A stretch of DNA of 64,000 bases. It comes from Octopus sinensis (Eukaryota). A program made the position numbers and the translations under genes. Where the stretch lies: contig NC_043001.1 in the NCBI RefSeq assembly GCF_006345805.1, positions 12,152,001 to 12,216,000 of the forward strand, given 5' to 3'. The first letter of the stretch is position 1; every line of letters begins with the position of its first letter. Of this stretch, positions 4,679 through 64,000 are shown piece after piece. The notes under the pieces were generated by a model, which was not told where the DNA came from, did no database searches, and saw nothing but the letters and a program-made list of their open reading frames with translations.

Positions 4679-6336
4679 ATGTCCCCTAAGAAAATTCGTA
4701 GCGAAGGTGCTAAGCGTCATGCTATAACGCTGGAAGATAAAATGGTTTAGGATAAAACGCCTTGAAAAAGGTGAAAAATAGGTAACAATTGCACAATGTT
4801 TAGGGATGAGTCTGACAACTGTATCGACGATTGTATATAATAAGGACAAAAGTTTAGCACATATGAAATCTGATGCCCCAGGGATGAAGAAGGCTGTGAT
4901 CAATAAGAAAAGAAGCAACATTTTTGAAGAAATGGAAAATGTTCTTTCTCTTTTGATTGTCGTGTTTAATCTTCAGTTTGCTATAATTCAAGAGTAATCA
5001 TTGTCTTTGTGTGAGGAACTGAAGAAAAAATATACAGATGAGAAAGATGTAGAGTTCAAAGCAAGTCAAGGATGGTTCAGGAGATTTAAGGAGCGAAGTT
5101 ATCACTCCATTAAGAAGCAAAGTGAAAGTGCATCAGCTGACGAAGAGGCAGCCGTGGAATTTCCTAATGCATTAAAGAAAATCATCGAAGAAAACGCGTT
5201 TCTTCCAGAAAATGTTTTTAACGTAAACGAACTGAATTGTATACGAAAAAATTGCCAGACCGTTCATTCACTTCTAATAAGGAGAAACCTATTCCAGGTT
5301 ATAAGTTCTCAAAAGAAGGTATGACCATTATGTTGGAAGGTAATTGTGCAGGAGATTTTAAGTTAAAGCTATTGCTTGTGTATCATGCACACAACTGGTG
5401 TGCTTTGAAAAACATACCCAAAGCATCTCTCCCTGTTATATGGATGGCTATTACAAAAGCATGGGTTACTGTTCTTGTTTTGGAAAATTCTCCAATCATT
5501 ATATCCCAGCAGCAGAGACGTAAAGAGATTTTACTTATCTTAGATTCCTTTTAGGGATTTATTTATCTTAGATAATGCTCCTGGCCACCTGCAAAACATC
5601 GTAGATTTAGAGACCCCAACGTTACCATCTTATACCTCCCTCTGAACACCACGTCTCGTCTGCAGTCAATGAAACAGGGAATCCTTGCTAGCTTCAAGCG
5701 TTACTATATGAAGCGTTCGTTGGGTCAATCAATAGCTGCAACTGATCTTGATGAGTCCATCCCATTTTGTGACTTTTAGAAAAGATACGATGTCTATAAG
5801 AACATAGCAGCGGTATGGAATGATGCACAGAGTACGGCTATGAATGGTCTTTGGAAGAAGTTTTGCCTACAATTAGTGAATGACTTTAAGGCGTTTAATT
5901 ATGTTGCCATCAACAAAACGTTGGTGACTACGAGCAAAGAACTGGAAATGGATTTGGAGGAGGAGGAGGAATTCACAGATTTATTGGGAAAAGTCGAACA
6001 AGGATAAAATAGAGATTCACGAGCAACAAAATAAAGAAGAAGAGGAATTCGAACCTGAACCATGTCACTTTGCCATTAAGAAAATGTAGCAAGCGTTTGA
6101 ATATATCGAAAAAGGTTTTTCTATGTTCGAGGACATGGATGCAAATGCTAAACGCATTTCTAAGATTATGGCGGCTTGTCATGAAACTTTTGCACTTTAT
6201 GATATAATCCTTGAGGAAAATAAATAAGACAGTTCAAGGAACTCTCAACCATTATTTTAAGCGCATCGAACAACAAGAACAGCCAGAATCAGCTGCTGAT
6301 ATTGACGATGCACAGCCATCTACATCCGCGATGTAA
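4679..6336 (+). pseudogene. Tigger/pogo (CENP-B HTH + DDE_1) transposase pseudogene
   Basis: ATG at 4679 (MSPKKIRSEGAKRHAITLEDK). Motifs FKASQGWFRRFKER, ESASADEEAA, VFNVNE, GDFKLKLLLVY, LDNAPGH and LPLNTTSRLQSMKQGI lie across several frames with stops and frameshifts; TAA at 6334-6336. Confidence 0.9.
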
Positions 6337-26199: not shown

Positions 26200-26610
26200 A
26201 AGGCGGCGAGCTGGCAGAAACGTTAACACGCCGAGCGAAATGCGTAGCCGTATTTCCTCTGCCGTTACGTTCTGAGTTCAAATTGCGCCGAGGTCGATTT
26301 TGCCTTTCATCTTTTCGGAGTCGATAAATTAAGTCCCAGTTACGCACTGGGGTCGATATAATCGACTTAATCCCTTTGTCTGTCCTTGTTTGTCCTCTCT
26401 GTGTTTAGCATCTTGTGGGTAGTAAAGAAATAGGTATTTCGTCTTGCGTTACGTTCTGAGTTCAAATTCTGCCGAGGTCGACTTTGCCTTTCATCCTCGA
26501 TAAATTATGTCCCAGTTACGCACTGGAGTTGATGTAGTGGACTTGAACCATTTGTCTGTCCCTGTTTGTCCCCTCTATGTTTATCCCCCTGTGGGTAATA
26601 AAGAAATAAA
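26200..26610 (+). mobile_element. SINE family B dimer (head-body-tail1-body-tail1)
   Basis: Junction aaagaaataggtatttcgtc at about 26425-26445; aatactct on both flanks. Confidence 0.9.
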
Positions 26611-29054: not shown

Positions 29055-29810
29055 TTCAAATTCCGCCGAGATGCACTTTACCGTTCATCATTTCGGGGTC
29101 GATAACGTAAGTACCAGTTGCGTGCTGGCGTCGATGTAATCGACTGGCACCCTCCTTAAAAATTCCGGTCTTTGGGCCTAGAGTAGAAAAGTAAGGAGGC
29201 AAGCTGGCAGAAATGTTAGAACGCCGAGCGAAATGCTTAGCAGTATTTCGTCTGCCGCTACGTTCTGAGTTCGAATTAAACCGATGTCGACTTTGCCTTT
29301 CATACTTTCGGGGTCGATTAAATATGTGCCAATTACGCACTGGGGTCGATGTAATCGACTTCGTCCGTTTGCCTGTCCTTGTTTGTCGTCTCTGTGTTTA
29401 GCCCCTTGTGGGTAGTAAAGAAATTGATATTTCGTCTGCCGTTACGTTTTGAGTTCAAATTCCGCCGACGTCGACTTTGCCTTTCATACTTTCGGGGTCG
29501 ATTAAATATGTGCCAATTACGCACTGAGATCGATATAATCGACTTAATCCGTTTGTCTGTCCTTGTTTGTCCCCACAGTGTGTAGCCCCTAGTGAGCAGT
29601 AAAGATATAAGAAACGTTAACACGCTGGGAAAATGTTTAGCGTTATTTCGTTTGTCTTTACGTTCTGAGTTCAAATTTCGTCGAGGTCGATTTTGCTTTT
29701 CATCCTTTCGGGGTCGATAAAGTATGTACCAGTTACGTATTAGGGTCGATCTAATCGACTGTCTCCCTTCTCCACAATTTTGGGCCTTGTGTCTAGAAGA
29801 GAAAAGGATA
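29055..29810 (+). mobile_element. Cluster/multimer of SINE family B units
   Basis: Four body units with tail 1 and tail 2 variants in direct orientation. Confidence 0.85.
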
Positions 29811-30466: not shown

Positions 30467-31084
30467 GCATCTTCCGTAAATCGAAGTGTTCAATTACACA
30501 GACGATTCACAAGTGTAAGGAGTCTTCATGACTGAATCGAATGTCAACCATGTGTCGTTTCTGTTGACGTTATCCTGCCGGTTATTTGACTCTCGCAAGT
30601 GCGCAAGCGGTTTTTTACAGGTATCAACAAACAGAGAATCTGAGAGGCGTGCAGGTGATAGCGAAACTGATTCCCGTTAATGCGGTACAGATCGGAGAAA
30701 CACCTCTCTTCCATGGGGGAGGTGTTAAACAATCCTCAATGAGATACTCTCTTTCGAAACTGCTAGAATATATTTACAAAATACATAACAATATAGAGAT
30801 GATATTGTTTGGATTCTCACTGTGCTCTGTTCACAACTCTATTTGTCAGGCATTACCATACATCAGCAAGTATTTTCTGTACCGATTCTGATAATTAAAT
30901 AATCTTAATCTACAGATTTTGCCTCTTTGTAATTACGGTGTTCTTCATTCCTAGAACATTATCTTGGATGTGCCTTAAATTTCTTGTAAAATTGTAACGC
31001 TGTCATGCAATTTAACCTATTGACGCATACTATCGCTGCCATTGGTTCATATTTTTGATAACGTTTCATCATAGTATGGTGTTT

Positions 31085-31468
31085 GGAAGCACTCCGTCGG
31101 TTACGACGATGAGGGTTCCGGTTGATCCGAATCAACGGAACAGCCTGCTCGTGAAATTAACGTATAAGTGGCTGAGCACTCCACACACACGTGTACCCTT
31201 AACGTAGTTCTCGGGGATATTCAGCGTGACACAGAGAGTGACAAGGCCGGCCCCTTGAAATACAGGTACAACAGAAACAGGAAGTAAGAGTGAGAGAAAG
31301 TTGTGGTGAAAGAGTACAGCAGGGATCACCACCATCCCCTGCTGGAGCCTCGTGGAGCTTTAGGTGTGTTCGCTCAATAAACACTCACAACGCCCTGTCT
31401 GGGAATCGTAACCGCGATCCTATGACCGCGAGTCCGCTGCCGTAACCACTGGGCCATTGCGCCTCCAC
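31085..31468 (-). mobile_element. SINE family C with 12-bp TSD
   Basis: tRNA-like head; TSD agtatggtgttt at 31073-31084 and 31469-31480. Confidence 0.92.
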
Positions 31469-32530
31469 AGTATGGTGTTTAGGACAACGATGGCTAACAA
31501 GGATGGCGTGGTTTATGGAAATATGACACAAATTTATATACACAATAATCACAACCACACATTTAAAATATGGTTTTTGCATATTTTCACATGTATTTTA
31601 TTTGAGCTAACCCCTTTTTATATAAAATTGTTTTAAAAGTATGTTCACCAAAACTGACGTTAACTCATCCATTAATTTATTTGAAAAGCAACGTAAAGTC
31701 GAACAAATGTAACTGGAAACGACATTATTCGAGGTATAGTATTAGCATTGTAAACAAAAGGACTGAAAAAAGGATGGCATAAAAAATGAAGGAAGCCATT
31801 TCTGTTGTGCAACATTCTGCCTTTGTGTAAAGAATTTTACAGTTATCTTACATCATTACCTGGAATTGAAATTCTAAAGAAGGCACATTTTTGTGTGTGC
31901 GTGTTTCAATGCGTAGAAAAGCTTCGACCTGCTTCGTTTGAATGTCATTGCTCTCTGATACAGCGATATGTTTTTACATGATACATTTTAAGTGAGTAAA
32001 TATGGAAGAGCCATATTCACTTGCTGAAACACATATATTATTTATATTATTTTATAGTATGTTTTTTTAATCTTTTGTCTGGTTTCAGTAATTGGACTGT
32101 AGTCATCATGGTATACCGCATGAAGAGCTTAGTCGAACAAATCGGCATTAGTTTGTAGCTTTTAAAGCCTGGTATATATTCTATATTTCTTTATTATGAT
32201 TATACAATCGTTACATAGAAGGACAAATACAGGACATACATGCAAAAAACAGTTAAGAGGTTCGATTAAAAATTTTCCATAACATTTGGATTATTCATTA
32301 TAAAAATTCGTCTGTAAATTGTCCTTTACGTGACCAATAGAATAATATAACATTTCATAAACTTTCGATCTTACCGAAGTTTTAAACCCCGGCAATTTAT
32401 AAGGCCCCTCAGCTTTTGTTTCCTCTCCTCCCTCCATAGTTAAGCTGGGTTTCTGACACCCACCTTTTTTTCCACTTCCTTCCATCTTTTCTCATACACG
32501 ACAGATGAGGAACTGGAACAGGCAATTGCA

Positions 32531-33886
32531 ATGAAGCTGATGGAAGGAAGGGCTGGAGTTTTCGAGTCTTTATCAGACTTGTCTACGTCTGAGAAGGAGC
32601 TGGAAATGGCAGCGAGGAAATTGGAAGAGAGACTGGGTTATACCTGTGCCGGTGTAACCAAGAAGGCGGAAGAGAAGGGGGTCGACTTGGCCAAGTTGCC
32701 AAGTTGCCAGAAATACATGAAAAAGTAAAGCGGTGAGGTGGAACTATCACCGACACCCAGGAGAAAAGAATGGTATCATGGGGGGACCATTATTTGCAGG
32801 GTGTTCGCAAACGAAGGAAAGAGGGTGGAAGTTGTTACCATGGAGTGGATAGGGGAGGCCCTGCGAGGAACTGAGGAGGAAATTAATTTTCTGACTCGAG
32901 GATCCAAGTGGGGTGCCGTAGTTGTGCATTTTAAAAGTGAGTCTGCAGCGAGGAAGATGGCGGCGAAGGCGGTGAAGTCAGAAAAGGTAACACTGTTACC
33001 TACGTATTTAAACAGAAGGATTACACGAATAAGGGTGGAGGGAGTGCCACCAAACGTGGAGGCAGAGTGGATTGTGGCGGCTGTGATCAGCGGCCACGAG
33101 GAGGAAGTGGATATTCTCCATGCCTCGGTTAAGTCCGAGGGCTGGAGAGGCGTAACAGTGGAGCTGAACGTGCAGGCGGAGAACGAGGTACTGGTGGACC
33201 TGGCGGAAAGCATCAGATTGGGAGACGTGATCATGAGAGTGTGGGTGGAGGGCAGAGCTCCACGTTGTTACAAGTGTGGCCTGAGGGGTCACATAAGAGC
33301 CTTCTGCCCTCCCCCAGGGAAAGAAATGGATTCCGAACCACAGAGAGAGAAGCAGAAACCAGAGGAGAAGGAGACAGTAGAAGAGGAAGAGAATACACAG
33401 AAATGGAAGGAAGCTGGAAATAAGAGGAAGAGAAGAATACGAGGAAAAGAAAACATGGAACACCAATCTACCCCAAAACCACCCACACCCTCTGAGTCCC
33501 ACCCTATCCATGCAGACATTGAACCCACCCGCTCCCCCCCAACAAGAAAACAAAAGAAAAAAAATAATACACACACACAAGAGATTGAATTCGATATCAG
33601 GCCGTACATTTGTACTATGACTGAACAGAAAGAAGTTAAAAGTCTAATGGAAGAGTATAAATGGTACGAAGTTGGTGAGACTCGGTATGCTGTGATTGAA
33701 AAGAAGAACATAGATGAGTTTATGGTGAGGTGTGAAAGGGAGAATTGGGAGGTGAAGGATATAAGAATGAGCGATGAATTCGTGGAAAATATGGATGAGT
33801 ATTTCGGAGTAAGAATGGATATGGAATTTATTCGTATTGGCAAAGAACATTCAAGTGACGATGAAAAACAAAGGACAGGTAAGTGA
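32531..33886 (+). pseudogene. Non-LTR retrotransposon ORF1/gag-like protein with CCHC zinc knuckle (one in-frame stop at 32726-32728)
   Basis: ORFs 32531-32728 and 32738-33886 are in the same frame. The protein has an RRM-like segment (RIRVEGVPPNVEAEWI), VWVEGRAPR-CYKCGLRGHIRAFC (CX2CX4HX4C, 33266-33307), then a basic/Pro-rich region, as in L1/Tx1-group ORF1s. Confidence 0.8.
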
Positions 33887-34579
33887 TGCTGACGGATGGG
33901 GCCGTTGGTATCGCTTTCATACTATCATTTTCTTTCACTTAACAATTCATTTTTCATAAATTTTAATTATAATGTTCTATGTCCCCATGTCTTGTGGTGT
34001 CCCCCTCTGTGTCGCCCCCTGGTGGGTAATAAAGAATCACAAATCCTAACATTGGGCTAACTGCTTAGGCTATCGATCATCGAACTAGGATCATCAAATC
34101 AAGCGCTGATCTATCTGGGAATCGAACTCATAATATGAAGAACTAAATATAATAGTAAAAATCGCTTGTTGCTTCTCTCTAAATATTGTATCATCTTCGA
34201 TATTTTCTGGATATTAAGTTGCTGCGAAGCATGAAATTGAATAGAATTTCATTTACTTTTTTTCGTCTTTAATTATACGTTATACGTATATTCAGTAGAT
34301 TTCTAGTTTACACGTCTTCGCTAACATTTATAAATATCCACGTTGAAGTTAATATAATATTTTACGATGTTGATGTCGCAACAAATTTCCTCCTGTCAGC
34401 CTATAATTATTTCTTTGATATTGATTTTTTTGTAGCGTCTTGGATTCTAGACTTATTCCACGCTATCTCACAACCTGCCACGCAAACCGAAATATTTGAA
34501 AAAAAAACTTCAGTAGCAAAAATATTAGGTCAGACGCAAATATGGTGTTTAAATCACCACTAAATCTTATAACCATTCA

Positions 34580-34608
34580 CACACACACACATAGACAGAC
34601 AGACAGAC

Positions 34609-34673
<65 letters not shown>

Positions 34674-34675
34674 TA
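34580..34675. repeat. (CA)n-(GACA)n-(GATA)n microsatellite
   Basis: Direct reading. Confidence 0.9.
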
Positions 34676-35356
34676 GAGTGTATATATAGAAGCAAAATTG
34701 TGATTAGTTAAAATGTTTACGACATACTTAAACTGTTAAAATGCAAATTCACTTCATTTATCCTGGAGAAAATGTCTCTTATGATAAAAAGCTGTGAAAA
34801 CACCCGGCCTTTTCCTTGTTGCCATCTACTAGGAATCCCAGACATCGATGTTTGGAGTTTTATTAATCTTGTCAATAGGATGTACCTAAGAAAGGTAACT
34901 CTGAATAAACTTGTAATACAATAGCTTTATGTAAAGCCCAGTCAGCAACGTTGCCTGATTAGCACAGGCAGATTGCCCGGTCGAGAAAGGAAAGATCCAA
35001 GGAAGGGAAGACGGCGGGAAAAAAATCACCAACGATTCACACGCGGTCACATTTTGAATATATATAAACATTGTCTGGAATCAGCCGAATTGAGCCTACC
35101 TACGTATGAGGCTATTACAAAAATCCGGAATTGAGCGATCAGCATGGCTATACCTTGAACACTACTTCCGAACGATTACGGTCACTGTTAGTTTGTATGT
35201 ATACAATTACGTGCGTTAAGTGCAGCATTGTAACCTTTTAGCTTTTATTTTCTATCACTCAATGTGTTTGGAACACCCTTAGTCATATTTAATGACAAAT
35301 GACAGTTATGACTTTCCTTTTTGGTAAAACATTGTATACAGATGCCTTTATCAATT

Positions 35357-35678: not shown

Positions 35679-36323
35679 CTGTTACATCTCTGTTTCACAG
35701 CAGATTTCTTGAGGAACTGGGTCCCAACTCCTAAATGTGGAAAGAAATTCTTTGCACTCACCTAAGTGCAACCACAATGGAATACTACTTCTTTATCTGC
35801 GAGGTGATTGCTCTCACGGACAGCGACACTCTCCACCACGCCGATTGATTTTACCCTCTAACACAAGGGCATTCTATTATCTCCTTCACTCACTTCATTC
35901 TCTTCTAACATAGTCTCTAATATTTACTTTTGTCTAGTGGCCGACAATCCTTACTCAAGCAGCCTCTTCACATTAGTCACACTGCATTTGTTCAGCAACT
36001 GTAATAGTCCACTATCACCGCCCTCCACATTTAGTTTCGTCTACACCTAGAATATCATATCAGCCTTCTGAAATTCCGATAAGATCATTCTGTTCCTCCA
36101 TTTCAACTATTATATCAGAGCTCAACTAGCGCAGAGAAATAACTTACCGCTCACACAAAAGAATAAAATATTTAACACTTGGTATCTTTGATCGAAAGAT
36201 TTCAAAATTTTTTAATTGAAACTCGCAACAATAAACGACATATCATAGTGCTTGTTTGTGAGTGTATGTGTGTGTTAGTCGGTACACATATTTTGTTTCC
36301 ATAATCAGATTATATTACCATGT

Positions 36324-36712
36324 GTGGAGGCGCAATGGCCCAGTGGTTAGGGCAGCGGACTCGCGGTCGTAGGATCGCGGTTTCGATTCCCAGACCGGGC
36401 TTTGTGAGTGTTTATTGAGCGAAAACACCTAAAAAGCTCCACGAGGCTCCGGCAGGGCGTGGTGGTGATCCCTGCTGTACTCTTTCACCACAACTTTCTC
36501 TCACTCTTACTTCCTGTTTCTGTTGTGCCTGTATTTCAAAGGGCCGGCCTTGTCACTCTCTGTGTCACGTTGAATATCCCCGAGAACTACGTTAAGGGTA
36601 CACGTGTCTGTGGAGTGCTCAGCCACTTGCACGTTAATTTCACGAGCAGGCTGTTCCGTTGATCGGATCAACCGGAACCCTCGTCGTCGTAACCGACGGA
36701 GTGCTTCCATCC
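36324..36712 (+). mobile_element. SINE family C with 12-bp TSD
   Basis: TSD atattaccatgt at 36312-36323 and 36713-36724. Confidence 0.92.
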
Positions 36713-44666: not shown

Positions 44667-45267
44667 TATTTCTTTACTACCCACAAGGGGCTAAACATAG
44701 AGGGGACAAACAAGGACTGACAAACGGATAAAGTCGATTATATCGACTCCATTGCGAAACTGGTATTTTATTTATCGACCCCGAAAGGTTGAAAGGCAAA
44801 GTCGACCTTGGTGGAATTTGAGCTCAGAACGTAACGACAGACGAAATACCTATTCCTTTACTACCATCAAGGGGCTAAACATAGAGGGGACAAACAAGGA
44901 CAGATAAACGGATTAAGTCGATTATATCGACCCCAGTCCGAAACTGGTATTTTATTTATCGACCCCGAAAGGTTGAAAGGCAAAGTCGACCTTGGTGGAA
45001 TTTGAACTCAGAACGTAACGACAGACGAAATACCTATTCCTTTACTACCCACAAGGGGATAAACACAGAGGGGACAAGCAAGGACAGACAAACGGATTAA
45101 GTCGATTACATCGACCCCAGTGCGTAACTGGTACTTAATTTATCGACCCCGAATGGATGAAAGGCAAAGTCGACCTCGGCGGAATTTGAACTCAGAACTT
45201 AACGGCAGACGAAATACCGCTCCGCATTTCGCCCGGCGTACTAACGATTATGCCAGCTCGCCAACTT
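44667..45267 (-). mobile_element. SINE family B trimer
   Basis: One head (about 45215-45267) and three body+tail1 units of about 183 bp; tgtgtgtatata on both flanks. Confidence 0.92.
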
Positions 45268-47773: not shown

Positions 47774-48178
47774 AGGCAGTGACCTGGCAGAATTGTTAGC
47801 ACGCTGGGCGAGATGCTTAGCAGTATTTCGTGTGCCGCTACGTTCTGATTTCAAATTTCGCCGAGGTCGACTTTGCCTTTCATCCTTTCGGGGTCGATTA
47901 AATAAGTACCAGTTACGCACTGGAGTTGATATAATCAGCTTAAGCCGTTTATCTGCCTTTGTTTGTCCTCTCTGTGTTTAGCCCCTTGTGGGTAGTAAAG
48001 AAATAGGTATTTCGTTCTGAGTTCAATTTCCGCCGAGGTTGACTTTGCCTTTCATCCTTTCGGGATCGATAAATTAAGTACCAGTTACGCACTGGGATCG
48101 ATGTAATCAACTTAATCCGTTTGTCTGTCCTTGTTTTTCTCCTCTATGTTTAGCCTCTTGTGGCCAATAAAGAAATAT
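47774..48178 (+). mobile_element. SINE family B dimer with 15-bp TSD
   Basis: TSD gaattaacaatttaa at 47759-47773 and 48179-48193 encloses both units. Confidence 0.92.
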
Positions 48179-50845: not shown

Positions 50846-51969
50846 AAAAATATAGAATTTAGTTAAATTCAAAGGATTTCATTTGTATAGTTTTCTCATT
50901 ATCCAAAATCGCAAAGAGGATAAGTAGATAGACAAAGAACATCTTTTATCAAAACCATCTCAGTTGTAACCATTACTGACGGCTTCAGCGTTGCTGCCGA
51001 GTGTACTTGGGCTTGTATTGGCAGACTTTTCATAGATTTGGGTTATATTTTGCTCTGTATCACGGTGTGCCTTTGGAGGATTAAGTTCATTCTGTGGCCC
51101 CTTTTAGTATATATAAATGTGTGACTCTGTGTGTGTGGCTGTGTGTGTGTACAGATAGACAGAGAGGTAGACATACTGATTGATTAACAGACAGATATAT
51201 TGGTTTAAAGGAATACAAGAAAGAGTGATTACATTGCTAGTTTTTAATAAAACAATACAGTAATATTATTACCAAGGCGCTACTCTAAACAATAACACCC
51301 TTTGCAGACAGGAAATAAATCATAAAGCGTGAAAGGAATGCGCGAATAATGGATGGAGAACGGATAAGTGTCATCCTTCAAATACACACGGAAAGAAATA
51401 CGCAGGCGTAAAAGAAGAATTTTTTTAAAATATCAATATAGGTAGTAAATAACTGAAGCGGCCATAAAGATGGTGGGAGTTGGCACGAAATAGAAATAGT
51501 CATAGTATGAATATGAACACTGGAGTCAGCAGAAAGTACTTGCCAACAAAATGACCAAGAAACCAGGAAAGTTAAATTTAAAAGGAAACAGAATGTGATA
51601 GATTGTAGAAATGCCAGAGGGTAGTATGTTAGCTTTTAAATCGTACTTGTTCATTCTGTCGTTCATACGTAACTAAACATACATATATACATTTATACAT
51701 ACAAACACTCGTAAATACATGCGTACATATAAACGTACTTACATATGTATTTATAGATATATACATAGAAAAATATATATATGTGCACTTACTCATGTAG
51801 GCACGTGGACATAAATCAACAACGTATAGTAATTAACGTTGAAAGTCAATTTGTGTGGACATTGGTGAAAGCACAGATATTAACAATTACAAGAATAATA
51901 AAGTAATATATACATAAATAAGATCGCTTACTCAGGTTCCTGCGCACCAGATAAAATATAAACGACAAT

Positions 51970-52354
51970 GGAAGCACTCCGTAGGTTACGACGACGAGGG
52001 TTCCGGTTAATCCGAATCAACGGAACAGCCTGCTCGTGAAATTATCGTACAAGTGGCTGAGCACTCCACAGACACGTGTACCCTTAACGTAGTTCTCGGG
52101 GATATTCAGCGTGACACAGAGAGTGACAAGGCCGGCCCTTTGAAATACAGGTACAACCGAAACAAGAAGTAAGAGTGAGAGAATGTTGTGGTGAAAGAGT
52201 ACAGCAGGGATCACCACCATCCCCCCCTGCCGGAGCCTCGTGGAGCTTTAGGTGTTTTCGCTCAATAAACAGTCACAACGCCCGGTCTGGGAATCGAAAC
52301 CGTGATCCTATGACCGCGAGTCCGCTGTCCTAACCACTGGGCCATTGCGCCTCC
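51970..52354 (-). mobile_element. SINE family C with 8-bp TSD
   Basis: TSD acgacaat at 51962-51969 and 52355-52362. Confidence 0.9.
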
Positions 52355-52539
52355 ACGACAATATACATACACTCATTGGAAATTGGTATCTTTAGAATGC
52401 ACGGACAGAAACACTACCTCGAGGCTAGTTAAGGTTGTAATTATGTCCAACAACCACTCATTGTGGATGACGACGTTATCATAGTAAGCGGAGTGTCTCT
52501 AAAACGCCGCTATCCAATCACCAAACGATAAAATATAAT

Positions 52540-55610: not shown

Positions 55611-56505
55611 TGATACGATAATAATATCTTAATGCGATTTGTAATATTTATTACGTAAACACCTTATTTTATTCTCGTTTCCTATATTAAATTACGGATG
55701 ATAAATTCGATATTAAACGTTTCGTAGTATTTCAGTATTTATTAGGGTATACATACAAATATAAATACACTCCGATATATCAATATATAATGATTAATTT
55801 TCTATATATTATGTTTCAGCAAGACACATTCTAAAATAAGATACGTTTTATGTATACTGTTACGTACTTCATTATATAATTTACATTCATTTTCATTTAT
55901 TTCAACAAATATTTCCTGTGTTTACAATATATATGAATTCTATAAGAAACACAGTATGATTTGATTTATAAGCATAAATCATGCACTTCATATCATTTAC
56001 AGTGGAAAAATCAGTAAATTTTGGGGGCGATATATCTCAAGGAAGATTAGAGAAGCAAGCCAAAGTTTTAATATATATCATATCGGGTTCTCAGTGGCAC
56101 AGAATTTATTCCATATATTTATAAAACAACCAACACCTTATGTGTTTCAGTTTTTATCTTCAGTCGTTGTCTCCATTGATATCATACTTGAAATGAGTCG
56201 AAATATGCTATAAACGTTGATATAATGATTTCATAATTACAAAATAAGACGAAGCAATTAGCAAGTATGTATTCAATTAATGGTTTTCGTGAAGAATTCG
56301 TCACGAGGAACGCTCACGAAATTATAGTTACTTCAGTTCATCAGGGAAAATGTAATTAATAAATTACCTGAACAGATTCCACGCTTTTTACACGCTAAGA
56401 AAACGATCATCAGTCACTACCATCCTGCAGACGCAGCACCCTTGCTGCCATAACCCACAATGTTATTAAGCGCCCCATGATGGGAGAGCACTGACCGATA
56501 TATCT

Positions 56506-56921
56506 TATTTCTTTACTGCCCACAAGGGGCTATACATAGAGGGGACAAACAAGGACAGACAAACGGATTAAGTCGATTATATCGACATCAGTGCGTAACT
56601 GGTACTTATTTAATCGACCCCGAAAGAATGAACGGCAAAATCGACCTCGGCGGAATTTGAACTCACAACGTAGCGGCAGACGATATATCTATTTCTTCAT
56701 TACCCACAAGGGGCTAAACACAGAGAGGACAAAGAAGGACAAACAAACGGATTAAGTCGATGACATCGATCCCAGTGCGTAATTTGTACTTAATTTATCG
56801 AACCCGATAGGATGAAAGGCAAAATCGACCTCGGCGAAATTTGAACTCAGAACGTAACCGCAGACGAAATACGGCTACACATTTCGACCAGCGTGCTCAC
56901 CTTTCTGCCAGCTCGCCGCCT
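56506..56921 (-). mobile_element. SINE family B dimer with ~15-bp TSD
   Basis: ctgaccgatatatct (56491-56505) / ctgacgggtatatct (56922-56936). Confidence 0.88.
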
Positions 56922-60246: not shown

Positions 60247-63200
60247 CTAGCAGCATAGCCCGGCGTTGCCCGGGTATGTAAGAGCCCCTAGTAGGCAACG
60301 ACTAATCCCAATGTAGTCCTTTCCCTCCAGGGAACGAAGGTGCATGTGGACGTTGCAATGTCTTGTCTTCACTGGAATACTTCTGTATATACGATGTTCC
60401 TAGCTGTCCGTTTGGGCGAAAACATGAAAACATCATTGCGCCTCCCAACGCGTGAACAGCCCACGTAGAGTTGACCGTGGGCGAAGCACTGTTCGCCCAA
60501 ATGTAACCCAGCGACTTGTAGCGTTTGGCCTTGGGATTTATTGATGGACATTGCGAAGCAGAGTTTAACAGGAAACTGAGAACGCCTGAAGTGGATTGGT
60601 AGGTCAGCGCCCGACGGTTGAAGGTGCATCCGTGGAATGAAGACGTCCTCTCCCTTCCCACAACCGGTAAGTATTGTGGCCGTTATTAAATGTGGTGCCA
60701 AATGTTTCACAACCAAACGTGTGCCGTTGCACTGTTTAGGTGGAACCAAATTCCTGATGAGCATAATGGGCGCACCGACTTTTAACTTCAGGATGTGTGG
60801 TGGCAGGCCTGGCGGTTCAAGTGAATTCAGGAATTCAACAGGATAATCGGCAAGCTGGGCGGGGTCTGCTGTCCTATCTATAGATTTGTAGACGTGGACA
60901 TCACCAGGAATAGCTTCAAGTAGCTGGATATTGATGGAGTTGACGGTTGTAGTTTTGGGTGCGAGAATAGCTCTGCCTGCCAGCCATTTTAGGTCGCGTA
61001 AATTGTTTTGTAGGTCGTGGAAGACAGCGTCCCGGAGGCTAGCAGGGGTGTCGACAATGGTGCAAAGTGAGTCCATTTGAACGTAGCCATCCGCATCAGA
61101 CAGCATCCTATTTTCACCGAGCAATAAGAGGTCCCTGGAGAATGCAGCGGATCCGCTGTCACCAATTAACTGCGCGCGCATGTTAGTTTGGAGGTGCAAG
61201 GGCCGCACATGTGCCCAAAGAGCTGACGACTTAAGGCACGCGCGCACGGCATCGGCACGGGTTCCTTTTGGAATAACAGGTAGAGTCTGCCTGAAGCCTC
61301 CTGAAAGAAGTAAAGTTAATCCTCCCATGGGGGCCGTAGAGTCTTGCAGGGACCTGTCCAGTGCCTCAAGGGCGCCTTTGTGTGCCATAGTGCACTCGTC
61401 CCATACGATGAGTTTGCATCTGCGCAGAATGTCGGCCTGTTCTGAGTTCTTGGCGATGTTGCAGATAGGTGACTCGGACTTTGCCAGATCGAGCGGGAGT
61501 CTGAAGGCAGATGGGCGGTTCTGCCACCCGGAAGCAACGTGGCCGCGATACCAGAGGAAGCTACAGCCAGGGCAATGTCCGTGTTGCGTCTGACCTCTGC
61601 CAGAATTAGTTTAGTGACGAAGGTTTTGCCAGTGCCGCCGGGTGCATCAAGGAAGAAAATCCCCCCACGTTGCTGTCTGACAGAGTCTACGATGGTGTTG
61701 TAGGCTATGCGCTGGTCTGGAAGCAGCCGTGGTTCATTATCTTGGACGTACTGGTGCAGTTCCTCAATGCAGTAGGAAGTTTCGCGTAACAATTCAGCAG
61801 ACATAACATTGGCGTGTTCACGTGTGGGTGGTGGAAGGCCGTACTCTGTTAAAGCAGACCCACCCATATCGATGACAGCGTCTTCGAGTTGAATGAGCGC
61901 AAAATTGTAAATGAAGTTGGTGAACGTGATCTCGGCGGAAGGGCAGTGTTGCTGAGCCGTACGTAAGAAGTCGTGCGACATGTCATCCCTGTATTTCATC
62001 CAGAGACTTAGTGGATCACTAAGCTGACATTTTTGAAGAAGGATTGCGAAAAGATGTCGTAGGGCCGAATGCGTTTGCAGTAAAGCACCCTCTGCCATCG
62101 TGGCGTCCCACTGGGAGTTATCCTCTAGAAGGCCAAGTCTCATACATGCTTCCCTGAAGGTGTCGCACAGAACCCCATTGACGGTACGTATATTGGCGAA
62201 ACCTGTTGGACCAGTGACCTCATGTAGAAGGAGACGGAGGTAGAAGCATTCTTGCTGGTTTGGCGGGATGTTGTAAACTCGACCCAGGCAGGAGTCAAAC
62301 TTGACGCCTGGGAAGCTTTCGACGTTTTTGCCGGATTTCCGTCGAACCCAGGTGTTTTTAGACCACACGAAGTACGATGGGACCTGTGGGTACAAAAGCG
62401 TTCGAGCGAAGTCATCACGTTGGCATAATTTGAAGAAACCAGTCAACGTTGTGTCTTTAGGGCTGGTGGCTATCTGCACAGCACTTTGCTCTGTGAAGTA
62501 AATCTGCTGTCCATTTTCCAAGTGTACAGCAAGCTGTACCACAGCCGGGTGTCTCTGATGGAGCGGGAAGCCGTAAATGCGCCAAAACGCTTCGTTGCTG
62601 CTGAGGTACCGGCCAGCCAAGTAGTTGGACACTTCGTCGCGACTGGTGGTCCTCTGGATGCTGAACATGGCAGCATCGCTGCCTTTGTTGATATATTTGC
62701 AGACATATTGTATTGACCTGATGGAGCTGCAGAACTCAACGTTGACGTGGGCTTTGAATATCTTCGACAGGAGAGGACAGTAGGGGACAATGTAGCTGTT
62801 GTCCACTTGATGTCGCCCAACCGTAATCGTGCGGCCTCCATTGGCTGGACTCCTTCGTTTGTACAGCGGATACCCATCGCCGCCTGTTTGAGTCTCCAAA
62901 GTGAACCGTTTAGGAATCCCTTTGAGCAGGCTAATCCGTTTTTGTAGCATGGTGTGTTGGCGTAATTTGGTCCACAGGGCCCGTGTACCATGGTAGTGCG
63001 GACAATTTCGTAGAGTCCGGGGTCCTCATCGGGGTCAGGAATCTCGGCGGAAATGAATTTGTCAATGTCATTAGTCTCGATTTTATGAGTGAGCCAAATT
63101 AAGATGTGAGCATGTGGCAAGCACCTCTTTTGCCACTCGACCGAAAAATGTGGCACCTGACATGCCCGAAAATCTGACTCTTAACTATCAAATCCTTCAT

Positions 63201-64000
63201 TTTGCCCAAATTCAGACGGAAAACCCTAGCAACGATGTCGTGTCGATGGGTGTGAGATTGACCCGGGAGGAGTTCGCGAGTGATTTCGTCGCAGCTGGGA
63301 TTGCACGTGTAGGTGATAAAGAGGTCCGGCCGGCCGTAAATGCGCACGTAGGTCAAGGCGTCTTGGGTCCTTTCACGCATATATCGCGGTCCTCCCGTGA
63401 AGGTGGAGGGTAGAATGCATGGCTTGCCGATGTTGCGAGGGTCATTTTCTTGTTGCAAACCGTCACGGAGATGATGAATGTAGGGTCGGAGCGAAGTTTG
63501 GTCTGATTAAGTTTAATGTATAGCAGCCTTTCCGATTCCATTTTTGCGGCCATATCGACGGCGAACTGGTTGAATAGCTGACGACAACGGGGCAATAAGT
63601 TGAACTCACCCTCCCTGACCATGAACCGGTATGAGTAGAACGCCCTGCAGGAAACCGTCTTTGATGCCGCAGTAGTTTGATTGGAGGGCTGCCGTAAAGG
63701 AATTCCGAAGTGGTAGCCGTCTTCCCCATAAGGGAAAAGCAATGGATAGTGAAGCGCGTCATAAGATCTGTGAGTCTCGCTGATCCTGTGTAGGTTGTTA
63801 CCACGGGAGGAGATGATTATGTCACGGCTGTTGTGTTGCTCTCCGTGTATAACTGCGGCAATTTCGTTGCACGCAGGTGCGTTGAAACGGCGTTCGTGCT
63901 CCCCGTGGGGTCGTTTATCAGCATCAATGACAACGGTGAAGTTTGGAGATGGAGCACTGTCCAAGGCATATCTGAAGCTGCAGACGTAGCTGTTGATATC
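60247..64000 (-). mobile_element. Autonomous-type Helitron, running off the right edge of the window
   Basis: 3' end: hairpin cccgggcaacgccggg then CTAG at 60247-60250, next to T. Carries RepHel coding sequence. Confidence 0.95.
60369..64000 (-). pseudogene. Helitron RepHel (HUH Rep + Pif1 SF1 helicase), frameshifted
   Basis: Rep motifs PDLFITYTCNP, VEWQKRCLPHAHIL, YVCKYINKG; helicase motifs DAPGGTGKT, IVWDECTM, GGFRQTLPV, FAMSINKSQGQT, HGQLYVGCSRV. Split over five ORFs by frameshifts near 63480, 63150, 62930 and 61515. Confidence 0.93.

Follow-up and report, generated by a model that had tools for sequence, protein, structure and literature searches.

A candidate ORF1-only LINE derivative of Octopus ending in a tail related to that of an abundant SINE

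According to PMC5786205, the derivatives of long interspersed nuclear elements (LINEs) described so far that retain only open reading frame 1 (ORF1) come from L1, Jockey, and CR1, three clades in all. The half-L1 elements (HAL1) of mammals are non-autonomous, encode only the ORF1 protein (ORF1p), and keep the 5′ and 3′ ends of the LINE (PMC5753468, PMC5786205). HeT-A, derived from Jockey, and Ag-Sponge, derived from CR1, are counted in PMC5786205 among the "ORF1-present" bipartite non-autonomous LINEs, and the proteins of ORF1-only LINEs are there thought to multimerize with those of the partner element. As to the protein itself, PMC5203782 assigns mammalian L1 ORF1p to the Transposase_22 type and describes the ORF1s of non-mammalian animals that combine RNA recognition motifs (RRMs) with CCHC knuckles as consistent with the Tx1 clade. 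Here, a window of 64,000 nucleotides from Octopus sinensis (contig NC_043001.1, positions 12,152,001 to 12,216,000; "the window" denotes this whole stretch, numbered from its first nucleotide) was analyzed for a coding element of about 1.6 kb, in the following termed the ORF1 element. We consider it fairly probable that this element belongs to an ORF1-only, non-autonomous family of non-LTR (LTR, long terminal repeat) retrotransposons of Octopus that is mobilized in trans, the copy in the window being dead. Such a family would probably have originated by internal deletion from a two-ORF LINE of the L1/Tx1 type.

The reading frame of the ORF1 element comprises 462 codons plus TGA with a single in-frame TAA at codon 77, in agreement with a preliminary description of the locus that had reported ~450 codons with one stop. 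When this DNA was resampled 2000 times under a Markov model, a stop-free stretch as long as its 385 codons never arose (mean, 154 codons; maximum, 377), and the frame forms a purine-rich, GC-richer island within AT-rich DNA full of microsatellites as well as short interspersed nuclear elements (SINEs). The frame does reach the ACG proposed earlier as its start, but this start cannot be confirmed because 18 further pyrimidine-rich codons remain open upstream, back to a stop at 32441, and the earliest in-frame ATG is found only at 32531. The 5′ boundary of the element was placed between 32196 and ~32400, an older SINE fragment ending at 32195. Within the window, no second copy of ORF1 was found. 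The N-terminal motif of the protein is identical in a second copy from elsewhere, P0078 (84% identity over 51 residues). The same motif had been likened to a ubiquitin-interacting motif without its Ser; this comparison was abandoned, as Pfam returned no match to such a motif at an E value of ≤1, P0078 also has K at the Ser position, and an acidic helix of this sort is present in a relative as well. As a separate observation, a polypyrimidine tract with a CAG acceptor (32480-32504) and a consensus donor (33875-33884) bracket the frame, nearly all of which could be read as one exon between them, and P0078 appears to begin at this acceptor.

A profile built from residues 1 to 274 of the window protein and its O. 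sinensis relative P0006 retrieved 429 representatives at an E value of ≤0.001; details on relatives come from the best 150 of these 429 matches. The window protein, P0006, 97 of 149 new matches, and two C-terminal copies were combined in a 101-sequence alignment, which left out most short fragments, some chimeras, and the 26-knuckle repeat protein P0049. AlphaFold2 run on this alignment gave 10-residue block values of the predicted local distance difference test (pLDDT) of 90 to 98 across residues 61 to 270, while the single sequence yielded an uninformative model (pLDDT, 39). The top Foldseek matches, with E values between 4e-5 and 8e-4, were the tandem-RRM proteins raver1 (4e-5) and U2AF65 (6e-5). 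VIA-align identified RRM-type folds at residues 84 to 173 and ferredoxin-like folds at residues 172 to 254, with a middling best Z score of 8.2 (root mean square deviation, 2.8; 82 aligned residues); among the many RRMs matching domain 1 was that of La (1zh5_A; Z score, 8.0; root mean square deviation, 2.8; 83 aligned residues). Neighbors in the ESM Atlas were CCHC proteins from chordates, molluscs, and arthropods, with clusters of RBD_ZCCHC3_1st and RBD_ZCCHC3_2nd at 0.91. Pfam recognized the knuckle of the window copy weakly (zf-CCHC; E value, 0.056) and that of 21 of the 101 alignment members at an E value of ≤0.05; among the 149 relatives listed, 34 have one knuckle and none has two or three. 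The best O. sinensis match, P0006, is 50% identical over 212 residues, and its linker is colinear with that of the window protein.

Because tandem RRMs and a CCHC knuckle are indicated by the model and the fold searches, the window protein, as modeled, is a LINE type-I ORF1p with two RRMs and one knuckle. Type-I ORF1s occur in other LINE clades too. The RRM-like, knuckle, and basic/Pro-rich regions noticed earlier are borne out by the AlphaFold2 confidence, the fold searches, and the linker composition. There is no capsid fold, and LINE type-I ORF1p is the correct designation in place of the former label "gag-like." An origin from an LTR retrotransposon or a retroviral Gag was rejected: the region before the knuckle confidently forms two RRM-type domains and no capsid domain, sequence matches to Gag are essentially confined to the knuckle, no terminal direct repeats were found in 31500-35000, and the named matches in a viral structure library at an E value of ≤0.001 were only generic RRM proteins, with no Gag. 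Transposase_22 matched neither the window protein nor appeared among 25 of the 27 families listed for the 101 alignment members; the RBD_ZCCHC3 families of Pfam likewise gave no match for the window protein and were absent from the families listed for the alignment. No relatives were found in a scan of bacterial and archaeal genomes. Since the TAA lies inside the folded region (block pLDDT of 90 to 92 on both sides) and the frame stays open at its position in 28 of 100 aligned relatives, the window copy is a pseudogene.

The ~90-residue C-terminal segment singled out as "extra" in the preliminary description is present, at ~100 residues, but its status as an addition is not supported: the six full-length relatives inspected all end in a domain of ~75 to 100 residues at the same position after the linker. 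Homology between the window domain and these domains is borderline as judged by profile comparison, with no score above shuffles for the first profile and, with hand-chosen boundaries, 6 of 1000 shuffles and an HHalign probability of 1%. For this domain, AlphaFold2 with alignment predicted a low-confidence fold (block pLDDT, 37 to 66), a search of the ESM Atlas gave no match, and a Pfam "Ephrin" hit below the cutoff was discarded as noise.

From the ORF1 stop to the end of the tail, the element measures exactly 150 nt, and translation of the 3.9 kb that follow, in each of the three plus-strand frames with stops as X, gave no Pfam family at an E value of ≤0.1, endonuclease and reverse transcriptase (RT) included; the ~150-nt distance and the lack of downstream endonuclease or RT reported before both held. 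The ORF1 stop overlaps an ATG (TGATG) that opens a frame of 18 codons, and "LSLN" is encoded in a further short frame (33884-33945); these may be what is left of a deleted ORF2 start, for which Pfam gave no support. The LINE-type 3′ end was confirmed as well, but it is more than an AATAAA: as a new observation, its final ~67 nt show homology with the tail (last ~62 to 67 nt) of the most frequent SINE of the window, which has a tRNA-like head. The match is to a SINE and was taken as a LINE-type 3′ terminus. Aligned with the SINE tail consensus, the tail of the element scored 55.5 with several indels, compared with a maximum of 38 in 2000 shuffles and with 84.5 to 120 for all 19 SINE copies; since the score exceeds the shuffles and falls below every SINE copy, the tail is related to that of the SINE and is not a SINE fragment. 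Counting the ORF1 element, the window has 20 occurrences of the tail motif, against 0.07 expected.

Chance juxtaposition of a 3′-truncated LINE ORF1 with an old, 5′-truncated, independently inserted SINE would draw on the very high frequency of SINE tails (19 in 64 kb) and on the absence of a target-site duplication (TSD) framing the whole ORF1 element. The tail is, however, far more diverged from the consensus than any SINE copy although the ORF is young, and homology sets in precisely where the tail starts, with nothing of the SINE body, which makes this alternative very improbable. Shared tails are described as a recognized mark of a common partner LINE in PMC4824008 and PMC4758252, and the tail homology therefore points to a partner common to the ORF1 element and the SINE, probably of the L1/Tx1 type. 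The SINE itself is ~230 nt long and non-coding, with A- and B-box-like motifs in its head (by eye); neither Rfam nor ARAGORN gave a match anywhere in the window, and no tRNA was detected in the SINE head. Its central part may resemble a Meta-domain. In the 64 kb, the SINE is represented by at least 19 tail copies and forms head-to-tail multimers of a 172- to 184-nt head-truncated unit; its TSDs are A-rich and 15 to 27 nt long.

A protein search at near length gave 11 matches and one at shorter length gave 32, all from Octopus. Of these 43 proteins, 42 are clusters of O. vulgaris gene models (105 member sequences) located on 17 distinct chromosome-length contigs. These clusters contain 56 copies of the C-terminal unit that are 72 to 100% identical (median, 93%), and the ORF of the window is up to 99% identical to another copy. 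The same ...RTGK stop terminates 12 of the 42 clusters, most of the others leaving via the donor at 33879 (...QRT) into unrelated exons. At 11 diagnostic sites, the near-complete units fall into stepwise haplotypes of 12, 10, 7, 4, and 2 units plus 14 singletons, a nested ladder that, from the residues compared, is the pattern expected of successive master elements. Judged from sequence similarity alone, on which the clustering of copies rests, the ORF1 element is a young, dispersed, multi-copy Octopus repeat family; membership of a multi-copy family is supported by the 56 units, 42 clusters, and 17 contigs. The dispersal evidence concerns the C-terminal segment plus the one N-terminal copy in P0078: the RRM-CCHC part occurs at high identity in 0 of the 42 clusters, none of which clearly extends upstream of 33581, and in P0012 the C-terminal unit is joined to an ORF1 that belongs to a different family and is only 29% identical. 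According to PMC10700109, the ab initio O. vulgaris gene models come from an assembly in which repeats had been masked.

All 42 clusters (P0002 to P0005 and P0007 to P0044) hold the transposable-element segment as an exon. Fusions with host-gene sequence are seen in P0007, with Ig-like cilia-protein domains, and in P0038, named as a TP53RK isoform. The O. vulgaris gene models carrying the segment are probable annotation artefacts.

At the window locus, the junction between ORF1 and tail is clean, with ORF1 intact to the stop common to 12 of the 42 clusters, followed by 150 nt up to the conserved tail and by no endonuclease or RT remnant. Of the HAL1-like ORF1-only element proposed in the preliminary description, the direct joining of ORF1 to a LINE-type 3′ end without ORF2 stands at this locus. 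As a matter of argument, the precise junction favors a replicated family over a one-off internal deletion, since a random deletion needs both breakpoints in narrow windows. In the latter case, an ordinary two-ORF L1/Tx1 LINE would have lost ORF2 in this one copy, either at insertion by a template jump or later. The absent TSD suggests local rearrangement, masking could conceal ORF2 in every gene model, and the stop-overlapping ATG and "LSLN" could represent a remnant of an ORF2 start. Near-full-length insertions of suitable parents are also numerous, PMC13282606 giving for O. vulgaris 80 L1-Tx1 families and 421 recent insertions, 2.29 Mb in total. Nevertheless, the breakpoints would have to keep ORF1 precisely as far as its stop without any endonuclease or RT residue on either side, and no fused long protein was found: a search for longer homologues (675 to 2000 residues), including the C-terminal unit fused to endonuclease or RT, gave none, which is weak evidence, and the RT motifs searched for were present in 0 of 192 matches. 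We regard a one-off deletion as somewhat unlikely.

For the ORF1-only family mobilized in trans, the 80 L1-Tx1 families of O. vulgaris mean that a candidate partner clade is present. In the mechanism proposed, a master copy would be transcribed from the 5′ leader, and its own ORF1p, with two RRMs and the knuckle, would coat the RNA and may co-assemble with the ORF1p of the partner. The ORF2 protein of an autonomous LINE, comprising an apurinic/apyrimidinic (APE) endonuclease and an RT, would then recognize the conserved 3′ tail in trans, with target-primed reverse transcription serving to insert the cDNA; the SINE carrying the related tail would be mobilized by this protein, too.

Several observations weigh against this reading. 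The direct ORF1-tail junction without ORF2 is seen in one copy, that of the window locus, and because the O. vulgaris assembly was masked, gene-model coverage neither proves 5′ truncation, as proof of which it was discarded, nor reveals the sequence after the stop. No TSD above chance was found for the ORF1 element within 2.6 kb upstream (best P, 0.37), nor was a defined 5′ end, the boundary having no TSD to fix it; the TSD may have been lost together with the 5′ end. By comparison, 7 of 13 tested SINE ends have a 15- to 27-nt flanking duplication adjoining the SINE 5′ end, the remaining ones matching internal SINE repeats or nothing. Tail and 3′ untranslated region (UTR) fold no better than shuffles (tail z, −1.05). 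The only pointers to the partner clade are the ORF1 type and the presence of the clade in O. vulgaris. In the chimeric model P0008, an endonuclease-like exon lies downstream of the C-terminal unit; it is probably an unrelated exon, which by its motif looks RTE-type. Lastly, the 24 shared amino acid changes in the C-terminal 87 residues have a mean BLOSUM score of 0.00, versus −0.17 for neutral single-base changes (P, 0.32 to 0.41), and all 69 changes, in this protein-only proxy, gave P values of 0.06 to 0.12; the shared changes being no more conservative than neutral ones, no selection is demonstrated on the C-terminal domain.

These neutral-looking substitutions also bear on the idea that what is abundant is a unit of just the 3′ ~460 nt, i.e., C-terminal coding sequence plus tail, which would be SINE-like or multiply in tandem, the protein being dispensable and full-length copies rare. 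It would account for the missing RRM-CCHC part and the limit at 33581 in the 42 clusters, and head-to-tail multimers are known from the SINE whose tail is related. Moreover, the mean distance between C-terminal units is 0.031 within gene models (n = 16) and 0.089 between them (n = 1469; 0 of 10000 permutations), although the between-model value is inflated by the use of 90%-cluster representatives only; this greater likeness within models hints at local tandem copies. The sharp upstream boundary, on the other hand, falls at a stretch of low complexity, where masking would make a cut, and an N-terminal piece was found in another model (P0078, 84%), so that we hold a mere 3′ unit to be improbable. 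A co-opted host gene or exon, by a ZCCHC3- or L1TD1-like domestication, would explain the splice-acceptor-like site before the frame, the consensus donor at its end, and the Atlas similarity to ZCCHC3-like clusters. It is hardly credible, and the co-opted gag-like gene considered in the preliminary description was given up, in view of the nonsense codon in a conserved domain, the near-identical copies dispersed on 17 contigs, the retroposon tail, the neutral-looking shared substitutions, and the lack of a close O. sinensis orthologue (best, 50%).

The features of the element are listed in Table 1. Elsewhere in the window, a second, younger interspersed repeat of ~386 nt, with copies about 95% identical (31084-31469, 36323-36710, and 51968-52356), flanks the ORF1 element on both sides, and a degenerate fragment (64 to 71% identity) of a third interspersed repeat family (32043-32195) bounds its 5′ side. 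A Helitron-like Rep/PIF1 helicase region with a GC content of ~50% occupies 60369-63816 on the minus strand in several overlapping, frameshifted reading frames (PIF1; E values, 7e-30 and 1e-20). Two overlapping short ORFs at 4998-5554 (plus strand) resemble, by eye, a decayed Tigger/pogo-type DDE transposase.

Table 1. Positions of the parts of the ORF1 element and of SINE copies in the window
Feature	Positions	Strand	Evidence
Pyrimidine-rich leader, candidate 5′ UTR	32400-32497	+	Purine fraction 0.26 in 32401-32500 vs 0.56-0.74 in ORF
ORF1 reading frame, broken once; start at ACG 32498 or ATG 32531	32498-33886	+	Stop-free stretch of 385 codons
N-terminal acidic helical segment	32498-32677	+	Model helices 3-15 and 32-46; same motif in P0078
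Internal nonsense codon 77	32726-32728	+	Within conserved, confidently folded region
RRM-like domain 1, model ~84-173	32747-33016	+	VIA-align, Foldseek
RRM/ferredoxin-like domain 2, model 174-254	33017-33259	+	AlphaFold2 model, Foldseek, VIA-align, ESM Atlas
Single CCHC zinc knuckle C-x2-C-x4-H-x4-C (C257-C270)	33266-33307	+	Pfam zf-CCHC, E 0.056
Disordered acidic, basic, Pro-rich linker, A-rich/(CA)n at end	33308-33580	+	Block pLDDT drops from 76 to 46
C-terminal domain (~100 residues) and stop; exon in O. vulgaris gene models	33581-33886	+	56 units, 42 clusters
Consensus splice donor, GT at 33879-33880	33875-33884	+	Exit point of many chimeric gene models
Proximal 3′ UTR, T-rich stretch (T fraction 0.52 in 33920-33980)	33887-33969	+	No recognizable ORF2 remnant; no Pfam match
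3′ tail, homologous to SINE tail; terminates AATAAAGAA, without poly(A)	33970-34036	+	Alignment to SINE tail consensus
SINE copies	26250-26608, 29244-29605, 44667-45218, 47841-48177, 56496-56871, others		Tail motif, multimers

A young, multi-copy cephalopod example with a type-I ORF1p would represent an independent origin of ORF1-only elements. Its readable subfamily ladder would make the need for a cis-encoded ORF1p testable by the ratio of nonsynonymous to synonymous substitution rates, and the tail common to a frequent SINE offers a direct handle on the partner LINE of that SINE. In a bolder form, which we consider distinctly unlikely, the element would be a recently active ORF1-only retroposon that carries a Tx1-type RNA-binding gene on the stringently recognized tail of the dominant SINE, possibly from a different LINE clade, with local head-to-tail arrays and with relaxed protein selection in the youngest masters. 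If so, it would be an intermediate, caught in the act, that links a half-LINE with a SINE-like element, and it would give a lead to the autonomous LINE with which a major octopus SINE is partnered. The unmasked C-terminal segment in 42 O. vulgaris clusters (105 sequences), host-gene chimeras included, is in itself a source of annotation artefacts.

In the literature searched, to which Repbase, Dfam, and the Zenodo library of PMC13282606 did not belong, no description of a cephalopod ORF1-only LINE was found; the family may already be catalogued in repeat libraries. As far as their relevant parts go, the subject of PMC9115989 is elements of the RTE and Dong kinds, and PMC10351740 has no bearing on the origin of ZCCHC3. 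Like HAL1, the octopus element encodes only ORF1p and has a LINE-type 3′ end. HAL1, however, derives from mammalian L1, and the octopus ORF1p is of type I with no Transposase_22 match, on an element that has no poly(A) and whose tail is common to a SINE; the name HAL1, which strictly denotes mammalian L1 derivatives, was therefore excluded. With HeT-A and Ag-Sponge, the element has in common that it is of the ORF1-present, ORF2-less kind, and the HeT-A protein also has CCHC knuckles. It differs from both in its probable parent clade and its 150-nt 3′ UTR, and from HeT-A in that the octopus copy is interstitial among SINEs, with no evidence of telomere targeting. The tandem RRMs and CCHC knuckle followed by a low-complexity linker are found likewise in L1/Tx1 type-I ORF1p and in ZCCHC3-like proteins, whereas, in contrast to L1/Tx1 elements, the octopus locus has no ORF2, a single knuckle, and a diverged C-terminal domain. 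Finally, the SINE of the window with its tRNA-like head and the ORF1 element have homologous last ~62 to 67 nt ending in AATAAAGAA, but the former is ~230 nt long and non-coding, with TSDs and multimers, and the latter is about 1.6 kb long and coding.

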